A stretch of 63,718 bases of DNA, the filler included, from Candidatus Coatesbacteria bacterium (GTDB lineage Bacteria; JAFGND01), in assembly GCA_016927185.1 (NCBI GenBank). It is 6 parts of 6 records of this genome, joined end to end, with 100 filler letters (N's around TTAATTAATTAA, not from the genome) between each part and the next. Parts side by side here need not be neighbours in the genome. Positions count along the whole stretch, not along the records: positions 33,046 to 38,443 come from JAFGND010000022.1; 5 more parts are not named here. One strand, written 5' to 3'. The position numbers were made by a program, and so were the translations under genes. The notes under the pieces were generated by a model, which saw nothing but the letters and a program-made list of their open reading frames with translations, did not search any database and was not told the origin of the DNA. Below are positions 32,790 through 38,443 of the stretch, piece by piece; position 1 is the first letter of the stretch, and every line of letters starts with the position of its first letter.

Positions 32790-32945
32790 ATGAAAAGACA
32801 CAAATCGTATTTATTGGCTTTAGTAATAGTGATGGTTTTCCCTCTATTAACTTCTTTTAAATGGCAATACAAGTGGCTTCTTGTTGAAGGTATAACAGGA
32901 AGCAATGCATACAGCATACTTGAAGAAGGCAAGAAGGAGTTCAAG
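32790..32945 (+). CDS. 5' fragment of an exported hypothetical protein (cut by the gap)
   Basis: GGAG RBS, signal-peptide-like N-terminus, open to the contig end. Confidence 0.6.
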
Positions 32946-33045
32946 NNNNNNNNNNNNNNNNNNNNNNNNNNNNNNNNNNNNNNNNNNNNTTAATTAATTA
33001 ANNNNNNNNNNNNNNNNNNNNNNNNNNNNNNNNNNNNNNNNNNNN
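32946..33045. other. Artificial contig linker
   Basis: N/TTAATTAATTAA/N. Confidence 0.98.
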
Positions 33046-33046
33046 A

Positions 33047-33259
33047 TTCCTGAAAGATATTAGAAACTATAATCCTGACAAGAGGAATGAAATTTGCTTA
33101 GCTTGTGAGAAAAGGAATTCATGTAATATTTGTATAGCTCAATCATATATAGAAAACAGAGATATTTATGCACCTAGTAAAGCATCATGCCAACTAGCTA
33201 ATTGGACCAAGGAGGTTAAAGAGAATGAAAGAAAAGTACAGCAAGCCTCAAATCATTAA
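33047..33259 (+). CDS. C-terminal SPASM domain fragment of a radical SAM protein (5' part lost at the gap)
   Basis: Manual translation FLKDIRNYNPDKRNEICLACEKRNSCNICIAQSYIENRDIYAPSKASCQLA...* = Cx2Cx5Cx2Cx18C. Confidence 0.8.
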   Translation, partial: FLKDIRNYNPDKRNEICLACEKRNSCNICIAQSYIENRDIYAPSKASCQLANWTKEVKENERKVQQASNH

Positions 33260-33425
33260 CAAGAGTAAAATGAAGCTGGTATTTGCAGGATGTGATTTTG
33301 ATTCACCACATCAGCCATGCTCTCTTGGAGGGCCATGCTCTATTTATCCTGTCTGTCATACAAACGTGGTAGTATCTAATTGTCTTTCTGCAAACCCATG
33401 CGATCCAGGTGGTTATCTAACATAA
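33225..33425 (+). CDS. Putative RiPP precursor peptide (66 aa, YSKPQI leader, six-Cys core)
   Basis: AAGGAGG RBS; basic leader with YxxPxI; core C-x8-C-x5-C-x5-C-x8-C-x5-C; overlaps the SPASM gene end. Confidence 0.72.
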   Translation: MKEKYSKPQIINKSKMKLVFAGCDFDSPHQPCSLGGPCSIYPVCHTNVVVSNCLSANPCDPGGYLT

Positions 33426-33426
33426 G

Positions 33427-33786
33427 ATGAAAGAAAGTATTTTGAAAGTTTCAGGGAATTGCATGTTTCCTGTTTTATCTGAAGGAGATAGCATCATCTA
33501 TAAATATGATGCAGAACCAAGAATTGGTGATTTGATAGTATTTTTAAGGGATGGATTTCTTCAAATCCATAGAGTAATATTTACTTTACCAGGCGGCAAG
33601 ATATTTCAAAAAGCTGACAACCGTTTAAGAGGGAGCTGGATTAAAAAGAATCAAGTCCTTGGCATAGTATCTCACATAATTCAAGATAATAAGACAACAA
33701 CGATTTATAATAGAACAGAAAGATACAAAGGTATTTTAACCTGCCTTTTTATTTTTTCGAAAAGAATGCTTGACAAACTTATATAA
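33427..33786 (+). CDS. S24/S26-family peptidase-like protein (GNCM in place of GxSM)
   Basis: VSGNCMFPVLSEGD...IGDLIVF...IHRV...KADN. Confidence 0.75.
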   Translation: MKESILKVSGNCMFPVLSEGDSIIYKYDAEPRIGDLIVFLRDGFLQIHRVIFTLPGGKIFQKADNRLRGSWIKKNQVLGIVSHIIQDNKTTTIYNRTERYKGILTCLFIFSKRMLDKLI

Positions 33787-33798
33787 ATTATTTATTCT
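33770..33798 (+). promoter_or_regulatory. Sigma-70 promoter TTGACA-N17-TATTCT
   Basis: Near-consensus boxes upstream of the AAGGAGG RBS of the Kelch gene. Confidence 0.6.
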
Positions 33799-33824
33799 GT
33801 TTTAAAATATTAAGGAGGTTTACT

Positions 33825-34895
33825 ATGAGATTTATTATTTTATCTGTACTGGTGTTTTCTTTTTGCCTCTATGCAAAAAGTGGACCCTATAAAAAATCCA
33901 TGCTAAATCCTTATAGCTCCATTTCTGTAAAGGATAAGAATCTCGATTCCAATAAGAATATTGGATATTCCTGGGAACAAAAAACCCCATCTCCAACAGC
34001 TTTTGCAAGAGGTTCATTTGCATTAATAAACGGAAAATTCTATGTCTTTTCTAGAACAAATAATATAAGACATGCTTATGATTATTCAGCTAATTCCTGG
34101 ACAGAGGTTACAAATGATCCTGGACCAAATCTATATTCAACATTTGGAGATAATGGTACCAAATTATACTGCTGGGGTGGGGCAAATCCAATGACTGCAG
34201 TATTGAGGATATATGATACTACTTCAGACAAATGGGATAGTTTCTCTGATCCTCATCCATTTGGTTCATATATATATGCAGGAAGAGCTTTCCCTTTGGA
34301 TAGCAACAGAATGTTCATTATACCAGGATCCACTTCAACCACGATGGATGTAGCATCCAACAAGTGCTATATATATAATATTTCTACTGCTACTTATACT
34401 CAAGCACCAGATATGCCCTTCGCACTATATGGTTTTGCTGCAATAAAAGATGGTAATCAAATAGTTGTCCTGGGAGGAAAAAATACCGCTCAAGCCAGGA
34501 CAAAGTACTGCCTGATATATTACATCAGCAGTTCAACCTGGGTAAATCTTGCGGGTGCTTATTTACCTGAGGATACATGGCAGGGAGCTGTTGTAAAAAC
34601 TGGAAATAGCTATTATTATATAGGTGGAGGTAATGGAAATTCATCTGATCCTTGTTCAAACAAGGTATATAGATGGAATGGTTCAACCTGGGCACAAGAT
34701 ACAAATTTGCCTTATTATGGAGGAACGATTGCTGCTGTTTCTCCTGATAACAACAGAATATTGATTTTTGGTGGTCTGGGAAGCCCTTCCAATCCAAATA
34801 ATGGCTATCCACTTAACCTATGTTATATGTCTTCAAACACTGGAATAAGAAAACTTACATGGGGAGAAATAAAACAAACCTTCATAGATAAATAA
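33825..34895 (+). CDS. Secreted Kelch-repeat beta-propeller protein with C-terminal TWGEIK tail
   Basis: GG/Y/W Kelch pattern; signal peptide; TGIRKLTWGEIKQTF. Confidence 0.8.
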   Translation: MRFIILSVLVFSFCLYAKSGPYKKSMLNPYSSISVKDKNLDSNKNIGYSWEQKTPSPTAFARGSFALINGKFYVFSRTNNIRHAYDYSANSWTEVTNDPGPNLYSTFGDNGTKLYCWGGANPMTAVLRIYDTTSDKWDSFSDPHPFGSYIYAGRAFPLDSNRMFIIPGSTSTTMDVASNKCYIYNISTATYTQAPDMPFALYGFAAIKDGNQIVVLGGKNTAQARTKYCLIYYISSSTWVNLAGAYLPEDTWQGAVVKTGNSYYYIGGGNGNSSDPCSNKVYRWNGSTWAQDTNLPYYGGTIAAVSPDNNRILIFGGLGSPSNPNNGYPLNLCYMSSNTGIRKLTWGEIKQTFIDK

Positions 34896-34900
34896 GTAAT

Positions 34901-34927
34901 AAAAGGTGCTTTTAAAGCACCTTTTTT
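34901..34927. terminator. Bidirectional intrinsic terminator
   Basis: AAAAGGTGCTTT-T-AAAGCACCTTTTTT between convergent genes. Confidence 0.8.
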
Positions 34928-35570
34928 ATTTAATCTCTTTTCTTTTTTCCCTTCTCCACTTTTCTATTTCCTGAAAATTACCATTTAATAAAATCTGGGG
35001 TACTTCAAAGCCTCTAAAGACTCTAGGTCTTGTGTAATGTGGATAATCAGTCATTTCCGAAATATATGCATCTTCAAATATACTGCTGCTATTCTCTATA
35101 ACTCCCGGGATTAACCTTATAACAGTTTCAATCAAGGTAATGGCAGCGATCTCACCCCCTGAAAGAACAAATTTGCCTAATGAAAAAAATTCCGGATTCA
35201 ATATTTCCATTACTCTATTATCAATTCCTCTATACCTTCCACAGATTATCAATAAATGTTCTTCAAGAGAAAGCTCTATTGCATAATCCTGATCTAATAT
35301 TCTTCCAACAGGTGATGTTATCATTAATCTGGTATTCTCAAGTCTGAGATTTTCAACTGCAGAAACAATAGGTTCTGGTTTCATTATCATTCCATCCCCT
35401 CCACCATATGGATAATCATCTACTTGTTTATGGTTTCCTTCAGTGAAATCTCTAAGATCATGAGCAGCTAACTTTACCTTGCCTTTTTTTATTGATTGAT
35501 TTACTATCCCGAGTGAAAAGAATGGTTCAAAAAGCTTTGGGAAAATTGTTAAAACATCAATTATCATCAA
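34926..35570 (-). CDS. trmD: tRNA (guanine37-N1)-methyltransferase
   Basis: VDDYPYGGGDGM, ICGRY.GID, VLSGGE, PHYTRP. Confidence 0.96.
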   Translation of the reverse strand: MMIIDVLTIFPKLFEPFFSLGIVNQSIKKGKVKLAAHDLRDFTEGNHKQVDDYPYGGGDGMIMKPEPIVSAVENLRLENTRLMITSPVGRILDQDYAIELSLEEHLLIICGRYRGIDNRVMEILNPEFFSLGKFVLSGGEIAAITLIETVIRLIPGVIENSSSIFEDAYISEMTDYPHYTRPRVFRGFEVPQILLNGNFQEIEKWRREKRKEIK

Positions 35571-36580
35571 AAAAGCTCACCATAATTAGTTTCTATAAAA
35601 AGATTGAATTCCTCAGTAAAACATCCTTTTATCCATTCATAGTTATTCATGTACCATTCTATTGTTGTATCTATTCCTTCTTCCAGATCAATCTCGGGTT
35701 TCCAGTTGAATTCCTTCTTTATCTTATTGGAGTTCATGGCATATCTCTTATCGTGATTAATCCTGTCTTTAACAAATCTTATCAGACTTTCAGGCTTATT
35801 AAGTCTTTTTAGCAATATCCTTACAAGATCAATATTTGAAATTCCAATTCCAGTACTTACATTATAAATTTCCCCCGCCTTTCCTTTTTCAAGTAAAACC
35901 AGGATAGCCCTTATATTATCTTCTACATGAATTCTCTCCCTTATGTTACTTCCATTGCCATATACGGGCAGGTATTTGTTATTCATAGCTCTATATATCA
36001 TCAAAGGTATTTGCTTTTCAATGAACTGGTATGGACCATAATTATTACAACTTCTTGTTATAACAACAGGCAAATTGTAGGATCTAAAATATGATAAACA
36101 GATCAAGTCTGCAGAAGCTTTTGATATGGCATATGGATTAGATGGTTTCAGGCATGCTGCTTCATTAAGTCTGTGAGGATAGTCAACCGGACCATATACT
36201 TCATCTGTTGATATTTGAAGAAATTTCTTTATATTGAAATCATTTGATATTTGAAGTAGTATTTGTGTTCCAAGAATATTTGTTTTGATAAACTGGTCAC
36301 AACAAATCAGGGATTTATCTACATGTGTTTCTGCAGCAAAGTTTATAACTGCATCAAAATTCTCCTTGGAAAATATAGCTGTCAATAAATCACAATCAGT
36401 CAAATCTCCTTTTGTGAATTTGATATTGTCATTTACAAGAAGTGGAACCAGATTGCTTAATCTACCTGCATATGTCAGTTTATCATAACAATAGAAAAAA
36501 ATATCCTTATATCTGGGAACTGCATATTTCAAGAAATTAGTTCCAATAAAACCTGCTGCACCTGTTATTAAAATCTTCAT
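35567..36580 (-). CDS. rfbB: dTDP-glucose 4,6-dehydratase
   Basis: TGAAGFIG, DKLTYAG, AAETHVD, STDEVYG, NNYGPYQ. Confidence 0.94.
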   Translation of the reverse strand: MKILITGAAGFIGTNFLKYAVPRYKDIFFYCYDKLTYAGRLSNLVPLLVNDNIKFTKGDLTDCDLLTAIFSKENFDAVINFAAETHVDKSLICCDQFIKTNILGTQILLQISNDFNIKKFLQISTDEVYGPVDYPHRLNEAACLKPSNPYAISKASADLICLSYFRSYNLPVVITRSCNNYGPYQFIEKQIPLMIYRAMNNKYLPVYGNGSNIRERIHVEDNIRAILVLLEKGKAGEIYNVSTGIGISNIDLVRILLKRLNKPESLIRFVKDRINHDKRYAMNSNKIKKEFNWKPEIDLEEGIDTTIEWYMNNYEWIKGCFTEEFNLFIETNYGELF

Positions 36581-36589
36581 GCTGACAAT

Positions 36590-37246
36590 CTACTCCTGCT
36601 TAATTTTTGTTTTCCAGAAACTCTCAATTCCATTCTGCATTTTATAAGCAGATTCATAAATATTATCAGAAGAAAGAACGCTAGTTACAACAGCAAGAAT
36701 TCTTGCTCCTGCCTCAAGCAATATCTCCATATTTTCTTGTTTTATTCCACCCATAACTGTTATATGAGTATCTGTTTCTTTTAATGCTCTCTTTAACAAA
36801 TCTACACCAACCGGTCCATTTATATGCTTTTTTGTATTTGTCTTAAATATTGGTCCAATATTTATATAGCCCGGATTGCATGAAACTGCTTTTCTTACTT
36901 CATCAATACCGTGAGTTGAAATACCTAATATATGATCAGGCCATATCCTGCTTACTTGTTCAAAAGGAAAGTCATCTTGACCGAGATGAATTCCATCAGC
37001 ATCTACTGAAATAGCAATATCCAGATGATCATTCATAATGAAGCAAGATTTATATTTCAATGTTTCTTTTCGGTAATACTGGGCAACTTCATGTAATTCT
37101 CTTTTTGAAAGGTTTTTCTCTCTAAGCTGGATTAACTTCACACCAGCATCAAGCAAAGCAGGAAGAATTTCACTGTGTTTTTTCCCATTTGCAAATTCCT
37201 CAGTTACTACAACATAAAGTCCATATTCTGGTAATTTTGCTTTCAA
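36590..37246 (-). CDS. thiE: Thiamine-phosphate synthase
   Basis: QLREK, MND, DGIHLGQDD, GISTH, GPIF.T.TK. Confidence 0.93.
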   Translation of the reverse strand: MKAKLPEYGLYVVVTEEFANGKKHSEILPALLDAGVKLIQLREKNLSKRELHEVAQYYRKETLKYKSCFIMNDHLDIAISVDADGIHLGQDDFPFEQVSRIWPDHILGISTHGIDEVRKAVSCNPGYINIGPIFKTNTKKHINGPVGVDLLKRALKETDTHITVMGGIKQENMEILLEAGARILAVVTSVLSSDNIYESAYKMQNGIESFWKTKIKQE

Positions 37247-37444
37247 CTATCCACCTCCAACAATGCTTACTATCTCAAGAATATCATTGTCTTTTAACAT
37301 AATTTCGTTCCAGTTATCTTTTTTTATGATTTCTCCATTCAATTCAATAATAATATTCTGGGTAATTCCTAAACCAGATAACAGGTCTATTATTCCCATA
37401 TTTTTTTCGAATTCCTTTGTTTCACCATTTATCCTTAATAACAT
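37247..37444 (-). CDS. thiS: Sulfur carrier protein ThiS
   Basis: 65 aa, ING..., ends EIVSIVGGG. Confidence 0.93.
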   Translation of the reverse strand: MLLRINGETKEFEKNMGIIDLLSGLGITQNIIIELNGEIIKKDNWNEIMLKDNDILEIVSIVGGG

Positions 37445-38443
37445 TACTTTTTTCCTTCTGCTTTTTCTTTCAACAAAATTGCATCAGGCTTCTCTAGTTG
37501 ATTATAAATCAGTCTGATATCTGGTCTTTTTCTTTCTGCAAGTGAATATTTTTCCTTTATCTGCCTGATTCTAGTTATTGATTCATCAAGTCTTTCATGA
37601 GATATTTTTTCAGTCTTTATAGCATTGTATAGTGCATTATAGGATCTTTCCCAGTAATCATCGCCTTCGCAAATCAATAGAATATCTACTCCTGCATTAA
37701 AGGCTTTTACAATTGCATCTTCAAAGGAATAGTACTTCATCAAAGCATTCATGAGTATGTCATCAGTTATTATAAGCCCTTTGTAACCCCATTTCTTTCT
37801 CAAGATATTTGTAACGAATTCCTTTGATAATGATGCAGGAAGACTGTCTATTGTTTCTACTAATAAATGACCAATCATTAAACAATCAATTTTATCTTCT
37901 TTGATTAATTCTCTGAAAGGCATTAAATCTGTTTTTTTTAACTGATCCAGATTCCTTTTTATCCTGGGTAAATCTTTATGAGAATCAGTTGATGTACTTC
38001 CATGCCCAGGAAAGTGTTTGGGAACAGCTATCAGTTTCTTTTCTAAATGTCCTTCAATAAATTTCCTTCCATAACTTAGTACCACATCTGGATCAGAACT
38101 ATAACTTCTACTCTCTATTACTTTGTTTTTCTTATTCGTATATACATCCAAGACAGGTGCGAAATTCATGTTAATGCCAAGTGATAAAAGCTCATGAGCC
38201 ATGAATCTTGAACAATCCTTTATTTCGAATAAATCTAATTCCCTGCTTATCTGCTTCGCAGAAGGAAAATGGGTTATGCTATTCGAAAATCGATGAACTC
38301 TCCCCCCTTCATGATCAATTGCAATAAAAGGTGGAATATTATTATTTGCTTCTTCTGATAGATTTCTTAAGGAAGTTGTTAAATTGACGATTTGTTCAGG
38401 ATTGCTAAGATCCTTTGAAAATAAAACAAAATTCCCAATATGG
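37444..38443 (-). CDS. nagZ: Beta-N-acetylhexosaminidase (GH3), 5'-truncated at the gap
   Basis: Frame is open to the gap with IAIDHEGGRV; KHFPGHG...DSH; ITDD. Confidence 0.88.

Follow-up and report, generated by a model that had tools for sequence, protein, structure and literature searches.

A window of 63,718 nt (the whole stretch of DNA that was analysed, from a Candidatus Coatesbacteria bacterium, GenBank assembly GCA_016927185.1) contains, at positions 33047-33786, the downstream half of a gene cluster whose most probable function is to cross-link and trim a small peptide rich in cysteine. The locus is a variant of a cassette for peptides that are made by the ribosome and modified after translation (RiPPs) that depends on a RiPP recognition element (RRE) and a radical S-adenosylmethionine (rSAM)/SPASM enzyme, a type that is widespread and has been catalogued only. 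Taken as a whole, the explanation given here, in which the locus is the 3' half of a split RiPP cluster with proposed thioether, phosphorylation and leader-removal steps, is judged fairly probable. The gene identities, the join between the two contigs that carry the cluster (C107 and C50) and the conservation of a five-part gene set in other phyla were established from the evidence below. The features of the locus are as follows.

33047..33259, plus strand: rSAM/SPASM maturase, last 70 codons and stop, with the final five of seven SPASM Cys and 63/70 identity to residues 295-364 of the homologue P0004
33209..33216, plus strand: Shine-Dalgarno-like sequence AAGGAGGT, with AGGAGG at 33210-33215 and the precursor ATG at 33225
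33225..33425, plus strand: candidate precursor of 66 aa, with leader MKEKYSKPQIINKSKMKLVFAG, six Cys in two C-x8-C-x5-C modules and a C-terminal Thr
33427..33786, plus strand: S24/S26-fold peptidase of 119 aa, probable leader peptidase, with Cys12 (GNCMFP), His48-Arg49 and a C-terminal helix at residues 95-118
32946..33045, no strand: contig junction outside the locus, with N runs at 32946-32989 and 33002-33045 around a TTAATTAATTAA linker

The window was assembled from six contigs concatenated via N runs and TTAATTAATTAA linkers. Contig C49 ends at 32945 and C50 occupies 33046-38443, with the locus at the extreme 5' end of C50. Because the gap is a junction of joined contigs, the open reading frame (ORF) to its left belongs to a different contig. 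An earlier note on this DNA had described the upstream part as lost at the gap; the upstream half is missing at this place, but the gap is a join of separate contigs and not an assembly hole within one sequence.

The frame 33047-33259 (plus strand) encodes a 70-aa C-terminal fragment (FLKDIRNYNPDKRNEICLACEKRNSCNICIAQSYIENRDIYAPSKASCQ...NH*), and the translation carries the C-x2-C-x5-C-x2-C-x18-C SPASM tail that the earlier note had reported. The tail alone matched no Pfam family, and its best NCBIfam match was a weak one to ScmF (21.6 bits vs. a cut-off of 400). The upstream partner was sought by translating all contig ends of the genome for open frames with CxxxCxxC. The 3' end of C107 is an open 289-aa ORF with CNQHCKYC (C107:5436-6302, the first 289 codons of the maturase), which scored 74.8 bits against PF04055 Radical_SAM (cut-off 29.5) and carries the first half of a SPASM domain (PF13186, 28.5 bits, cut-off 21.5) with two Cys (CSAG..., ...SPCAMFF). 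It is preceded by a PqqD gene. The rSAM core and PqqD/RRE expected upstream by the earlier note were thus recovered, and the upstream gene, on whose identity as a radical SAM enzyme that note had staked its reading, matches PF04055.

A protein search returned a full-length 364-aa homologue, P0004, encoded on an unrelated 1537-bp contig and identical at 86% of positions to the C107 part and at 90% (63/70 residues) to the C50 tail. The seven SPASM Cys are complete across the two contigs, two at the C107 end and five in the C50 tail, and are contiguous in P0004. At the join, C107 ends ...GNVRNDDILDIF, C50 starts FLKDIRNYN and P0004 reads ...DDILDIFKNHSFLKEIRNY, so that the alignment runs ...DDILDIF-KNHS-FLKEIRNY with only KNHS between the two parts. 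Because P0004 bridges both with just these four residues extra, about 10 nt are absent between C107 and C50. Another contig ending in a partial rSAM gene, C105, was rejected as the partner: it breaks after only 170 residues and its only ScmF match had E 0.0045, while C107 fits to the residue. A single-sequence scan of the genome contig collection with the N-terminal part of the rSAM found nothing. Judged from this fit in sequence, C107 and C50 form one RiPP-type maturation cluster, split by the assembly inside the radical SAM gene. The joined gene order is an NTP_transf_5 protein, an HprK/PEPCK-fold P-loop protein, PqqD, the 364-aa rSAM/SPASM enzyme, the 66-aa precursor, the S24/S26-fold peptidase and possibly a secreted Kelch propeller.

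The focal-type rSAM sequences (P0004, P0005) were placed, in a tree of 27 rows, within a 97/98-supported clade of 20 rows, together with all cassette rSAMs, P0006 and a paralogue on C99. This paralogue (L013, C99:14957-16150, 380 aa) is the closest cassette-rSAM paralogue in the genome; it is flanked by a sugar nucleotidyltransferase-like gene and a chain-length-determinant-looking gene, and no small peptide was seen nearby. The genome (G000, 3.0 Mb) gave 25 rSAM matches to the ScmF model at E<=10, and type IX secretion system (T9SS) sorting domains as well.

The remaining proteins of C107 were identified by profile and fold. PqqD scored 63.1 bits against PF05402 (cut-off 23.4), and its matches to the lasso and pyrroloquinoline quinone (PQQ) PqqD models of NCBIfam lay below their cut-offs. 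Structure prediction of the PqqD-precursor complex gave a score of 0.52, vs. 0.32 for the best control, which lends weak support to binding and may reflect memory of solved RRE-leader complexes; the runs shared at least 65% of contacts, and the partner predicted local distance difference test (pLDDT) value was at least 44. Of 157 solved complexes 116 attained the mark for such scores, as did 2 of 215 mismatched pairs; with a score of 0.60 or less it was attained by only 18 of the 157 and by both mismatches. The NTP_transf_5 protein exceeded the cut-off of PF14907 (106.7 bits). The P-loop protein has 222 aa and a GKSGSGKST P-loop; its model (mean pLDDT 70.7, residues 1-59 unstructured) was closest in Foldseek to PEPCK (E 4.7e-6) and to HPr kinase/phosphatase (1knx, 2.9e-4; 3tqf, 1.7e-3), and it matched TIGR04352 HprK_rel_A at E 2.6e-5 (23.4 bits vs. 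a cut-off of 200). A PDB sequence-profile search with the kinase-fold family returned only P-loop and PEPCK matches. On the strength of the model, the protein appears related to HprK at the level of the fold only. Two more lone HprK-like P-loop genes lie elsewhere in the genome (L040:4079-4990 on C38, and C54:39548-40465), and the one on C38 adjoins a gene for a 550-aa protein whose N-terminus looked by eye like a J-domain.

The 66-aa precursor ORF begins 35 nt before the rSAM stop codon, AGGAGG stands 9 nt upstream of its ATG, and its core follows the spacing C-x8-C-x5-C-x5-C-x8-C-x5-C. All features listed in the earlier note were present on direct reading, including the 66-aa ORF, its strong ribosome-binding site, the overlap with the SPASM tail, the leader and the periodic six-Cys core. 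The leader carries K-Y-S-K-P-Q-I, which fits the family leader Y-x-K-P-x-(I/L/V); YxxPxL is the RRE-binding leader motif of lasso peptides. Across 16 aligned precursors Y5, K7, P8, C23, C32, G35, P37 and C38 were invariant, and the focal peptide shares with the family its cassette position and a C…C-x-x-G-x-P…C skeleton. Six-frame translation of the genome (3.08 million residues) contains 82 copies of the pattern Y.KP.[ILV], i.e. about 0.002 expected per 66-aa ORF. The leader motif alone is weak; motif, position and conserved neighbours together are not chance. A duplication of the two core modules at the DNA level was considered and rejected, only short P-C codon repeats being seen. No NCBIfam model matched any of the precursors.

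The peptidase ORF of 119 aa starts 1 nt past the precursor stop codon, exactly the spacing that the earlier note had given for an S24/S26-like peptidase. Against PF00717 Peptidase_S24 it scored E 8.4e-5 and 22.7 bits, just below the Pfam cut-off of 23.3, and its relatives P0009, P0016 and P0017 exceeded this cut-off; against TIGR02227 it reached 24.7 bits (cut-off 47), and the archaeal-type signal peptidase I model TIGR02228 matched at E 1.4e-4. In the predicted structure (pLDDT 87.3) the best Foldseek matches were SipA (4n31, 7.2e-5), LexA, SpsB and human SEC11, and the S24/S26 fold was confirmed at the level of this model. With HMMER, 1927 of 1.84 billion representatives matched at E<=0.001. 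In the top 150 of these, the His and Arg of the HR motif, the general-base position that His48-Arg49 occupies in the focal enzyme, were present in 150/150; the nucleophile column contained Ser 129 times, Cys 17 times and a gap 4 times. The precursor-anchored loci described below gave Ser in 68, Cys in 2 and an absent motif in 1 (n = 71). Exchange of Ser and Cys at one column is the pattern expected of a working nucleophile and therefore supports this assignment. On these alignments the family would be a Ser/His peptidase on the S24/S26 fold, with the focal enzyme in a Cys minority: it carries Cys12 where peptidases of the S24/S26 type (clan SF) are expected to have a Ser nucleophile, paired with a Lys or His general base. 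The statement that all cassette peptidases carry Cys was considered and dropped, as it came from loci fetched with a Cys-containing pattern and the precursor-anchored loci gave Ser in 68/71.

The public gene calls P0007 (window 33463-33786) and P0008 (L012:2651-2953, G014) both start at the Met right after the Cys nucleophile. Because these calls start one residue past the nucleophile, the active-site residue is missing from the two database entries. The motif K-(V/L)-x-G-x-C-M-x-P is conserved upstream of the called Met and supports the longer peptidase ORF.

The cassette was then compared across genomes. Among 60 GTDB genomes, all domain-level kin, only G014 matched at E<=1e-30. Its rSAM is 32% identical to the focal rSAM, and its locus comprises an HprK-like gene, PqqD, rSAM/SPASM, a 49-aa ORF (MENKKKKSKYIKPQIKSEKIIETAALSCGKC...ERS) and a 113-aa peptidase with GGCMRP and IHRII. 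Pattern scans seeded with the peptidase gave one Sumerlaeota locus, seven Elusimicrobiota/Endomicrobia loci and fifteen metagenome loci. In total, 24 non-duplicate loci were scanned with hidden Markov models (HMMs) from three seed cassettes; as they were fetched via the peptidase or the rSAM, this set is biased. Fifteen hold the five genes in the focal order, seven are cut by contig ends and consistent with it, and two (L022, L035) hold the HprK-like and peptidase genes only. The precursor was present in 21/24 loci, in each case ending in Ser (21/21). The earlier note had rested its reading on conservation of the small ORF beside homologous SPASM genes, and a small Cys-bearing Y-x-K-P ORF lies beside homologous rSAM, PqqD and peptidase genes in these 21 loci. 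The cassette (HprK-like, PqqD, rSAM/SPASM, small peptide, S24/S26-fold peptidase) turns up repeatedly in Elusimicrobiota, Sumerlaeota and Armatimonadota.

Searched with a profile of 16 precursors, 5.8 billion proteins yielded at least 589 clusters (90% identity) at E<=1e-3, and the only source-given name among them was 'hypothetical protein'. Three Cys were counted in 115 of the 120 listed hits, four in 4 and six in 1; on visual inspection the additional Cys precede the Y-x-K-P leader and probably reflect mis-called N-termini. The C-terminal residue was Ser in 120/120 and [YF]x[KR]P was found in 118/120. A genome scan anchored on the precursor only, used to remove the peptidase-seeding bias, returned 80 loci, mostly of Elusimicrobiota with some of Armatimonadota. 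The order HprK-PqqD-precursor-peptidase-rSAM was found in 38 and the focal order, HprK-PqqD-rSAM-precursor-peptidase, in 8; PqqD-precursor-peptidase-rSAM (8), peptidase-PqqD-precursor (8), precursor alone (10) and smaller variants (8) made up the rest. The cassette set is kept while the gene order changes. Each of the 80 precursors ends in Ser and has three Cys in its core, and Ala occupies position -3 and position -1 before the first core Cys in 79/80 each. Ala-x-Ala is the cleavage rule of type I signal peptidases, and the family pattern at -3 and -1 fits it.

Several observations were made on the surroundings of these loci. An HD-GYP-type (HD_5) gene lies directly 5' of the HprK-like gene in 6/9 scanned loci (L017, L022, L024, L025, L033, L037), and was seen by eye in the same place in L012 and L015. 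An AAA_22 ATPase is encoded downstream of the cassette in L017, L022 and L033, and very large proteins in L022, L033, L035 and L037, three of these four with Ig-like matches. In L015 a gene for an 835-aa T9SS protein is inserted between precursor and peptidase, and in L022 about 440 bp of non-coding-looking DNA replaces PqqD, rSAM and precursor. SpoIID-like and unrelated genes flank the peptidase-PqqD-precursor loci, and stand-alone precursor copies were recorded in Armatimonadota (L086, L100, L103, L110, L114). No transporter was seen in the examined cassettes, and no cassette protein scored above cut-off in NCBIfam.

Downstream of the peptidase gene, the window holds two further features.

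33825..34895, plus strand: Kelch-repeat beta-propeller of 356 aa with an N-terminal signal-like segment (Kelch_6 58.4 bits, PF24681 60.6 bits)
34901..34925, no strand: two-way terminator-like hairpin, whose 11-pair stem leads into a T run on either strand

A promoter-like site (33770-33798, 10/12 positions matched) lies ahead of the Kelch gene, which may belong to the cluster. The hairpin, beyond which convergent housekeeping genes follow, is likely the 3' end of the transcription unit.

With the six-Cys peptide as substrate, maturation could proceed as follows. PqqD would bind the leader around K-Y-S-K-P-Q-I and present the peptide to the rSAM/SPASM enzyme, which would form sulfur-to-carbon thioether links from the six Cys; in their arrangement these may represent a doubled copy of the three-Cys module of the relatives. 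The kinase-fold protein might phosphorylate the hydroxyl of the C-terminal Thr (Ser in all relatives), as HPr-kinase homologues do on lasso precursors, and the nucleotidyltransferase may decorate the resulting phosphate. C-terminal phosphorylation is proposed because the C-terminal Thr, the kinase-fold protein and the nucleotidyltransferase together mirror lasso tailoring. The small peptidase would remove the leader, with Cys12 and His48 replacing the usual Ser and His.

A number of results weigh against this reading. Most concern the precursor: the 120-member family profile, built without the focal ORF, did not recover it (absent from 149 rows at E<=100, 46,090 genome ORFs), the ORF scored -0.1 bits when compared alone with that profile, and a word-based search of 5.8 billion proteins with the focal peptide returned only itself. 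Because profile and word searches find no match, what ties it to the family is its position, a short motif in the leader and an alignment of Cys/Gly/Pro columns of a kind that aligners can force. The focal peptide moreover ends in Thr where the family has Ser, has six Cys where the family has three, and is without the SEKIFETAALA half of the leader; F-A-G precedes its first Cys, and the Ala-x-Ala pattern of the family is not found there. The focal rSAM falls outside the cassette subclades of the tree, and the cassette rSAM of G014 matches the C99 paralogue (171 bits) better than the partial C107 gene (126 bits). PF07475 (Hpr_kinase_C) was not among the Pfam matches of the P-loop protein at E<=0.01, and no transporter was found in the focal cluster. 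Elsewhere the set can be incomplete: eight Armatimonadota or unclassified-bacterium metagenome-assembled genome (MAG) loci (L079, L085, L092, L095, L096, L099, L104, L116) show peptidase-PqqD-precursor but neither an rSAM nor an HprK-like gene in the surrounding 5 kb, and in two metagenome/MAG loci (L022:1525-3131, L035:5339-6357) an HprK-like gene adjoins a Cys-type peptidase with PqqD, rSAM and precursor missing. Given the profile miss, the different leader, core and terminus and the tree placement of the rSAM, the focal peptide is regarded as a divergent variant and not as a member of the three-Cys family.

The same profile detected ten other ORFs in the focal genome (E 5e-8 to 2e-4). Nine are clean, three-Cys ORFs of 54-56 aa, of which eight have a C-terminal Ser and one a C-terminal Thr. 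Their general form is MKxYxKPxIxSExxxEKTALxC-(D/E)(D/E)YxYYxKxYEGCx(D/E)EYLGRGK-x4-C-x4-S, i.e. a canonical leader with a new three-Cys core. The positions of the ten ORFs, and those of the propeller genes described below, are listed here.

C6:130-670 (L123): three dispersed peptides in tandem
C18:31181-31623 (L122): two dispersed peptides
C16:31855-32016 (L126), C70:1117-1278 (L127), C100:774-935 (L124) and C106:9949-10113 (L121): further dispersed peptides
C90:1960-2163 (L125): tenth profile hit
L123:839-3330, L124:1-618, L125:270-1817, L126:4176-4559 and L128:1-387: propeller genes

No NCBIfam model matched the dispersed peptides, a pattern scan for this type in other representative genomes found no relatives (one spurious 9-residue match), and an Atlas search with a dispersed peptide gave a best score of 0.85, below the lead level of 0.9. 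Cassette HMMs run on all genome ORFs identified C107/C50 as the sole complete cassette; outside it there were only a lone PqqD on C21 and the lone HprK-like genes on C38 and C54. T9SS-tailed PQQ-like beta-propellers adjoin dispersed peptides on C6, C90, C100 and C16. On C21 a propeller gene adjoins the second PqqD-like gene (L128:570-869), followed by a gene for a 1246-aa cyclase/AAA/TPR protein, and many propeller-bearing contigs break within propeller genes. On C106 (L121:3184-5272) a 359-aa rSAM/SPASM gene, a family-2 glycosyltransferase (GT2) gene and a dispersed-type precursor lie on one strand in an operon-like arrangement, and on C70 a DnaJ-domain protein (Pfam match) is encoded ahead of the dispersed peptide.

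These dispersed leader-bearing peptides, at least nine in number, could themselves be the main substrates of the cassette, with the 66-aa ORF a secondary substrate or none. The family profile finds them and not the focal ORF, the genome holds only one complete cassette, and precursors also stand alone in Armatimonadota (precursor only in 10/80 loci). This account is nevertheless judged unlikely, as the focal ORF runs across the rSAM stop codon, is preceded by a strong ribosome-binding site and directly adjoins the peptidase gene, and its slot is the precursor slot in 8/80 unbiased and 15/24 biased loci. The C106 copy follows its own rSAM/SPASM and GT2 genes, so other maturases exist, and the residue before the first Cys of the dispersed peptides (A, K, T, S, D or N) is a poor fit to a peptidase of Ala-x-Ala type. 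A further alternative, in which the 66-aa frame is open by chance and the substrate of the rSAM is something other than a ribosomal peptide, draws on the lack of any sequence homologue or profile match, and from a Cys-rich look-alike ORF on C10, which shows that such patterns arise by chance in an AT-rich genome. That candidate was rejected, as it runs antisense inside a 630-aa M1-peptidase-like gene; the 66-aa ORF, by contrast, is intergenic. With AGGAGG 9 nt upstream, spacings of -35 nt and +1 nt to its neighbours, a Y-x-K-P-x-I motif expected about 0.002 times by chance, six regularly patterned Cys, a PqqD gene that implies a peptide substrate and a precursor in the same slot of related cassettes, a chance origin is very improbable.

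It has also been considered that the product is a cross-linked peptide kept with a protein partner or made into a cofactor, rather than a secreted natural product; PQQ, mycofactocin and the small subunit of quinohemoprotein amine dehydrogenase are precedents. The absence of an exporter from all examined cassettes speaks for this, as do the secreted Kelch propeller downstream of the focal cluster, the propellers adjoining the dispersed peptides on four contigs, the large secreted or Ig-like proteins downstream of the cassette in L015, L022, L033 and L037, and the mycofactocin maturase model as first or second best NCBIfam match, below cut-off, for two cassette rSAMs. The orientation of peptide and propeller is inconsistent, however: the two genes share a strand on C90 and C6 and converge on C100 and C16. 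Both families are multi-copy and break contigs, so that adjacency may be incidental, and no link in sequence to QhpC, PqqA or MftA turned up, nor did any NCBIfam model match any peptide; such a product is regarded as rather improbable. A wider proposal, to which we give an equally low probability, would have the C107/C50 enzymes mature both the adjacent six-Cys peptide and the dispersed three-Cys peptides (at least nine), with a phosphate or sugar-phosphate at the C-terminus, a Cys/His leader peptidase on a signal-peptidase fold, and products that serve propeller partners as subunits, cofactor carriers or ligands and not as antibiotics. The preferred reading remains the split cluster that acts on the adjacent six-Cys peptide.

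RRE-dependent radical SAM peptide maturation is well known; the cassette described here places a kinase-fold protein and a miniature signal-peptidase-like enzyme alongside its rSAM. It comes with an unnamed peptide family of at least 589 clusters from several poorly cultured phyla, for which three testable rules can be given: the leader carries Y-x-K-P, Ala-x-Ala precedes the core, and the C-terminal Ser is invariant. To these the focal locus contributes a six-Cys core of doubled form, Thr as the last residue, an additional nucleotidyltransferase and a natural Ser-to-Cys swap of the nucleophile, which is a ready probe of the peptidase mechanism. Through automatic gene calls, the database entries of these peptidases (P0007, P0008) are without the active site.

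Among known systems, the nearest is a group already on record. The accessible part of the supplement of Precord et al. 2023 lists six precursors of this family, Elusimicrobia peptides such as ...KTEKVFETAALACGKC..., as sequence similarity network group 16, 'Other Uncharacterized' (PMC10288494). Like the relatives found here, group 16 falls in this cassette family and has the Y-x-K-P leader motif and an RRE-associated rSAM, and the accessible part gives just 6 sequences and no experiment (PMC10288494). Sactisynthase function is predicted there for all six new precursor groups, of which group 16 may be one (PMC10288494), and neither the kinase-fold protein nor the peptidase nor the invariance of the C-terminal Ser is mentioned in the accessible passages (PMC10288494). 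When that supplementary dataset was searched for four 6-letter motifs taken from the focal peptide, none of them was present. The earlier note had proposed an undescribed ranthi- or sactipeptide-like product; an RRE-dependent rSAM/SPASM RiPP is supported and the thioether chemistry would follow by analogy, but the wider cassette had already been catalogued, with six precursors, in 2023. In a literature search (subscription journals and bioRxiv supplements lay outside its reach), ALACGKC and LACGKC retrieved no paper, ETAALAC occurred only in an unrelated hearing-aid paper, SynChlorMet/ScmC retrieved only unrelated uses of 'SCMC', and the RRE-Finder paper left HPr, kinase, S24, signal peptidase and YxxP unmentioned.

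The lasso tailoring set is the model for the proposed C-terminal steps. HPr-kinase homologues phosphorylate the C-terminal Ser side chain of linear lasso precursors, and a nucleotidyltransferase adds hexose onto the C-terminal phosphate, according to the passages available from PMC8498205. As in the focal cluster, a PqqD-type RRE, an HPr-kinase homologue and a nucleotidyltransferase are united in one cluster for the phosphorylated and glycosylated lasso peptides paeninodin and pseudomycoidin. In both systems the precursor ends in a hydroxyl amino acid. Neither a lasso cyclase (Asn-synthetase-like) nor a B2 transglutaminase-like protease was found on C107/C50, and in the focal cluster the rSAM/SPASM enzyme and the S24/S26-fold peptidase replace them. 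PF14907, to which we take PsmN to belong, was found in no lasso paper within the same literature search.

The SynChlorMet cassette (TIGR04248 ScmD, TIGR04249 ScmC, TIGR04250 ScmE, TIGR04251 ScmF) likewise combines a PqqD homologue, a P-loop ScmC-like protein and rSAM/SPASM. The focal proteins match it weakly (ScmD E 1.2e-7, ScmC E 0.0094, the N-terminal part of the rSAM against ScmE 92.6 bits), and P0004 scored 119 bits against ScmE and 83 bits against ScmF, far below the equivalog cut-off of 400. The focal cluster differs from SynChlorMet by having one rSAM and not two, and by its S24/S26-fold peptidase and identified precursor. Sactipeptide and ranthipeptide maturases (AlbA, StsB, PapB, SCIFF maturase) are also full-SPASM rSAM enzymes that act RRE-dependently on Cys-rich cores, and P0004 scored far below the cut-off for each (StsB 109 of 625, PapB 88.7 of 340, AlbA 75.4 of 850 and SCIFF maturase 61.2 of 425 bits); in the focal cluster, unlike these, the RRE is a separate PqqD protein. 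The peptidase shares the fold of SipA of S. pyogenes (4n31; template modelling score 0.62-0.64 normalised to the query), and its His at the base position is found in the Ser/His-type S26 peptidases, i.e. SipW and the archaeal and endoplasmic reticulum types. Small signal-peptidase-like proteins differ from it in four respects: the focal enzyme has Cys for Ser, is 119 residues long, is without an N-terminal membrane anchor and is encoded inside a peptide-maturation cassette.

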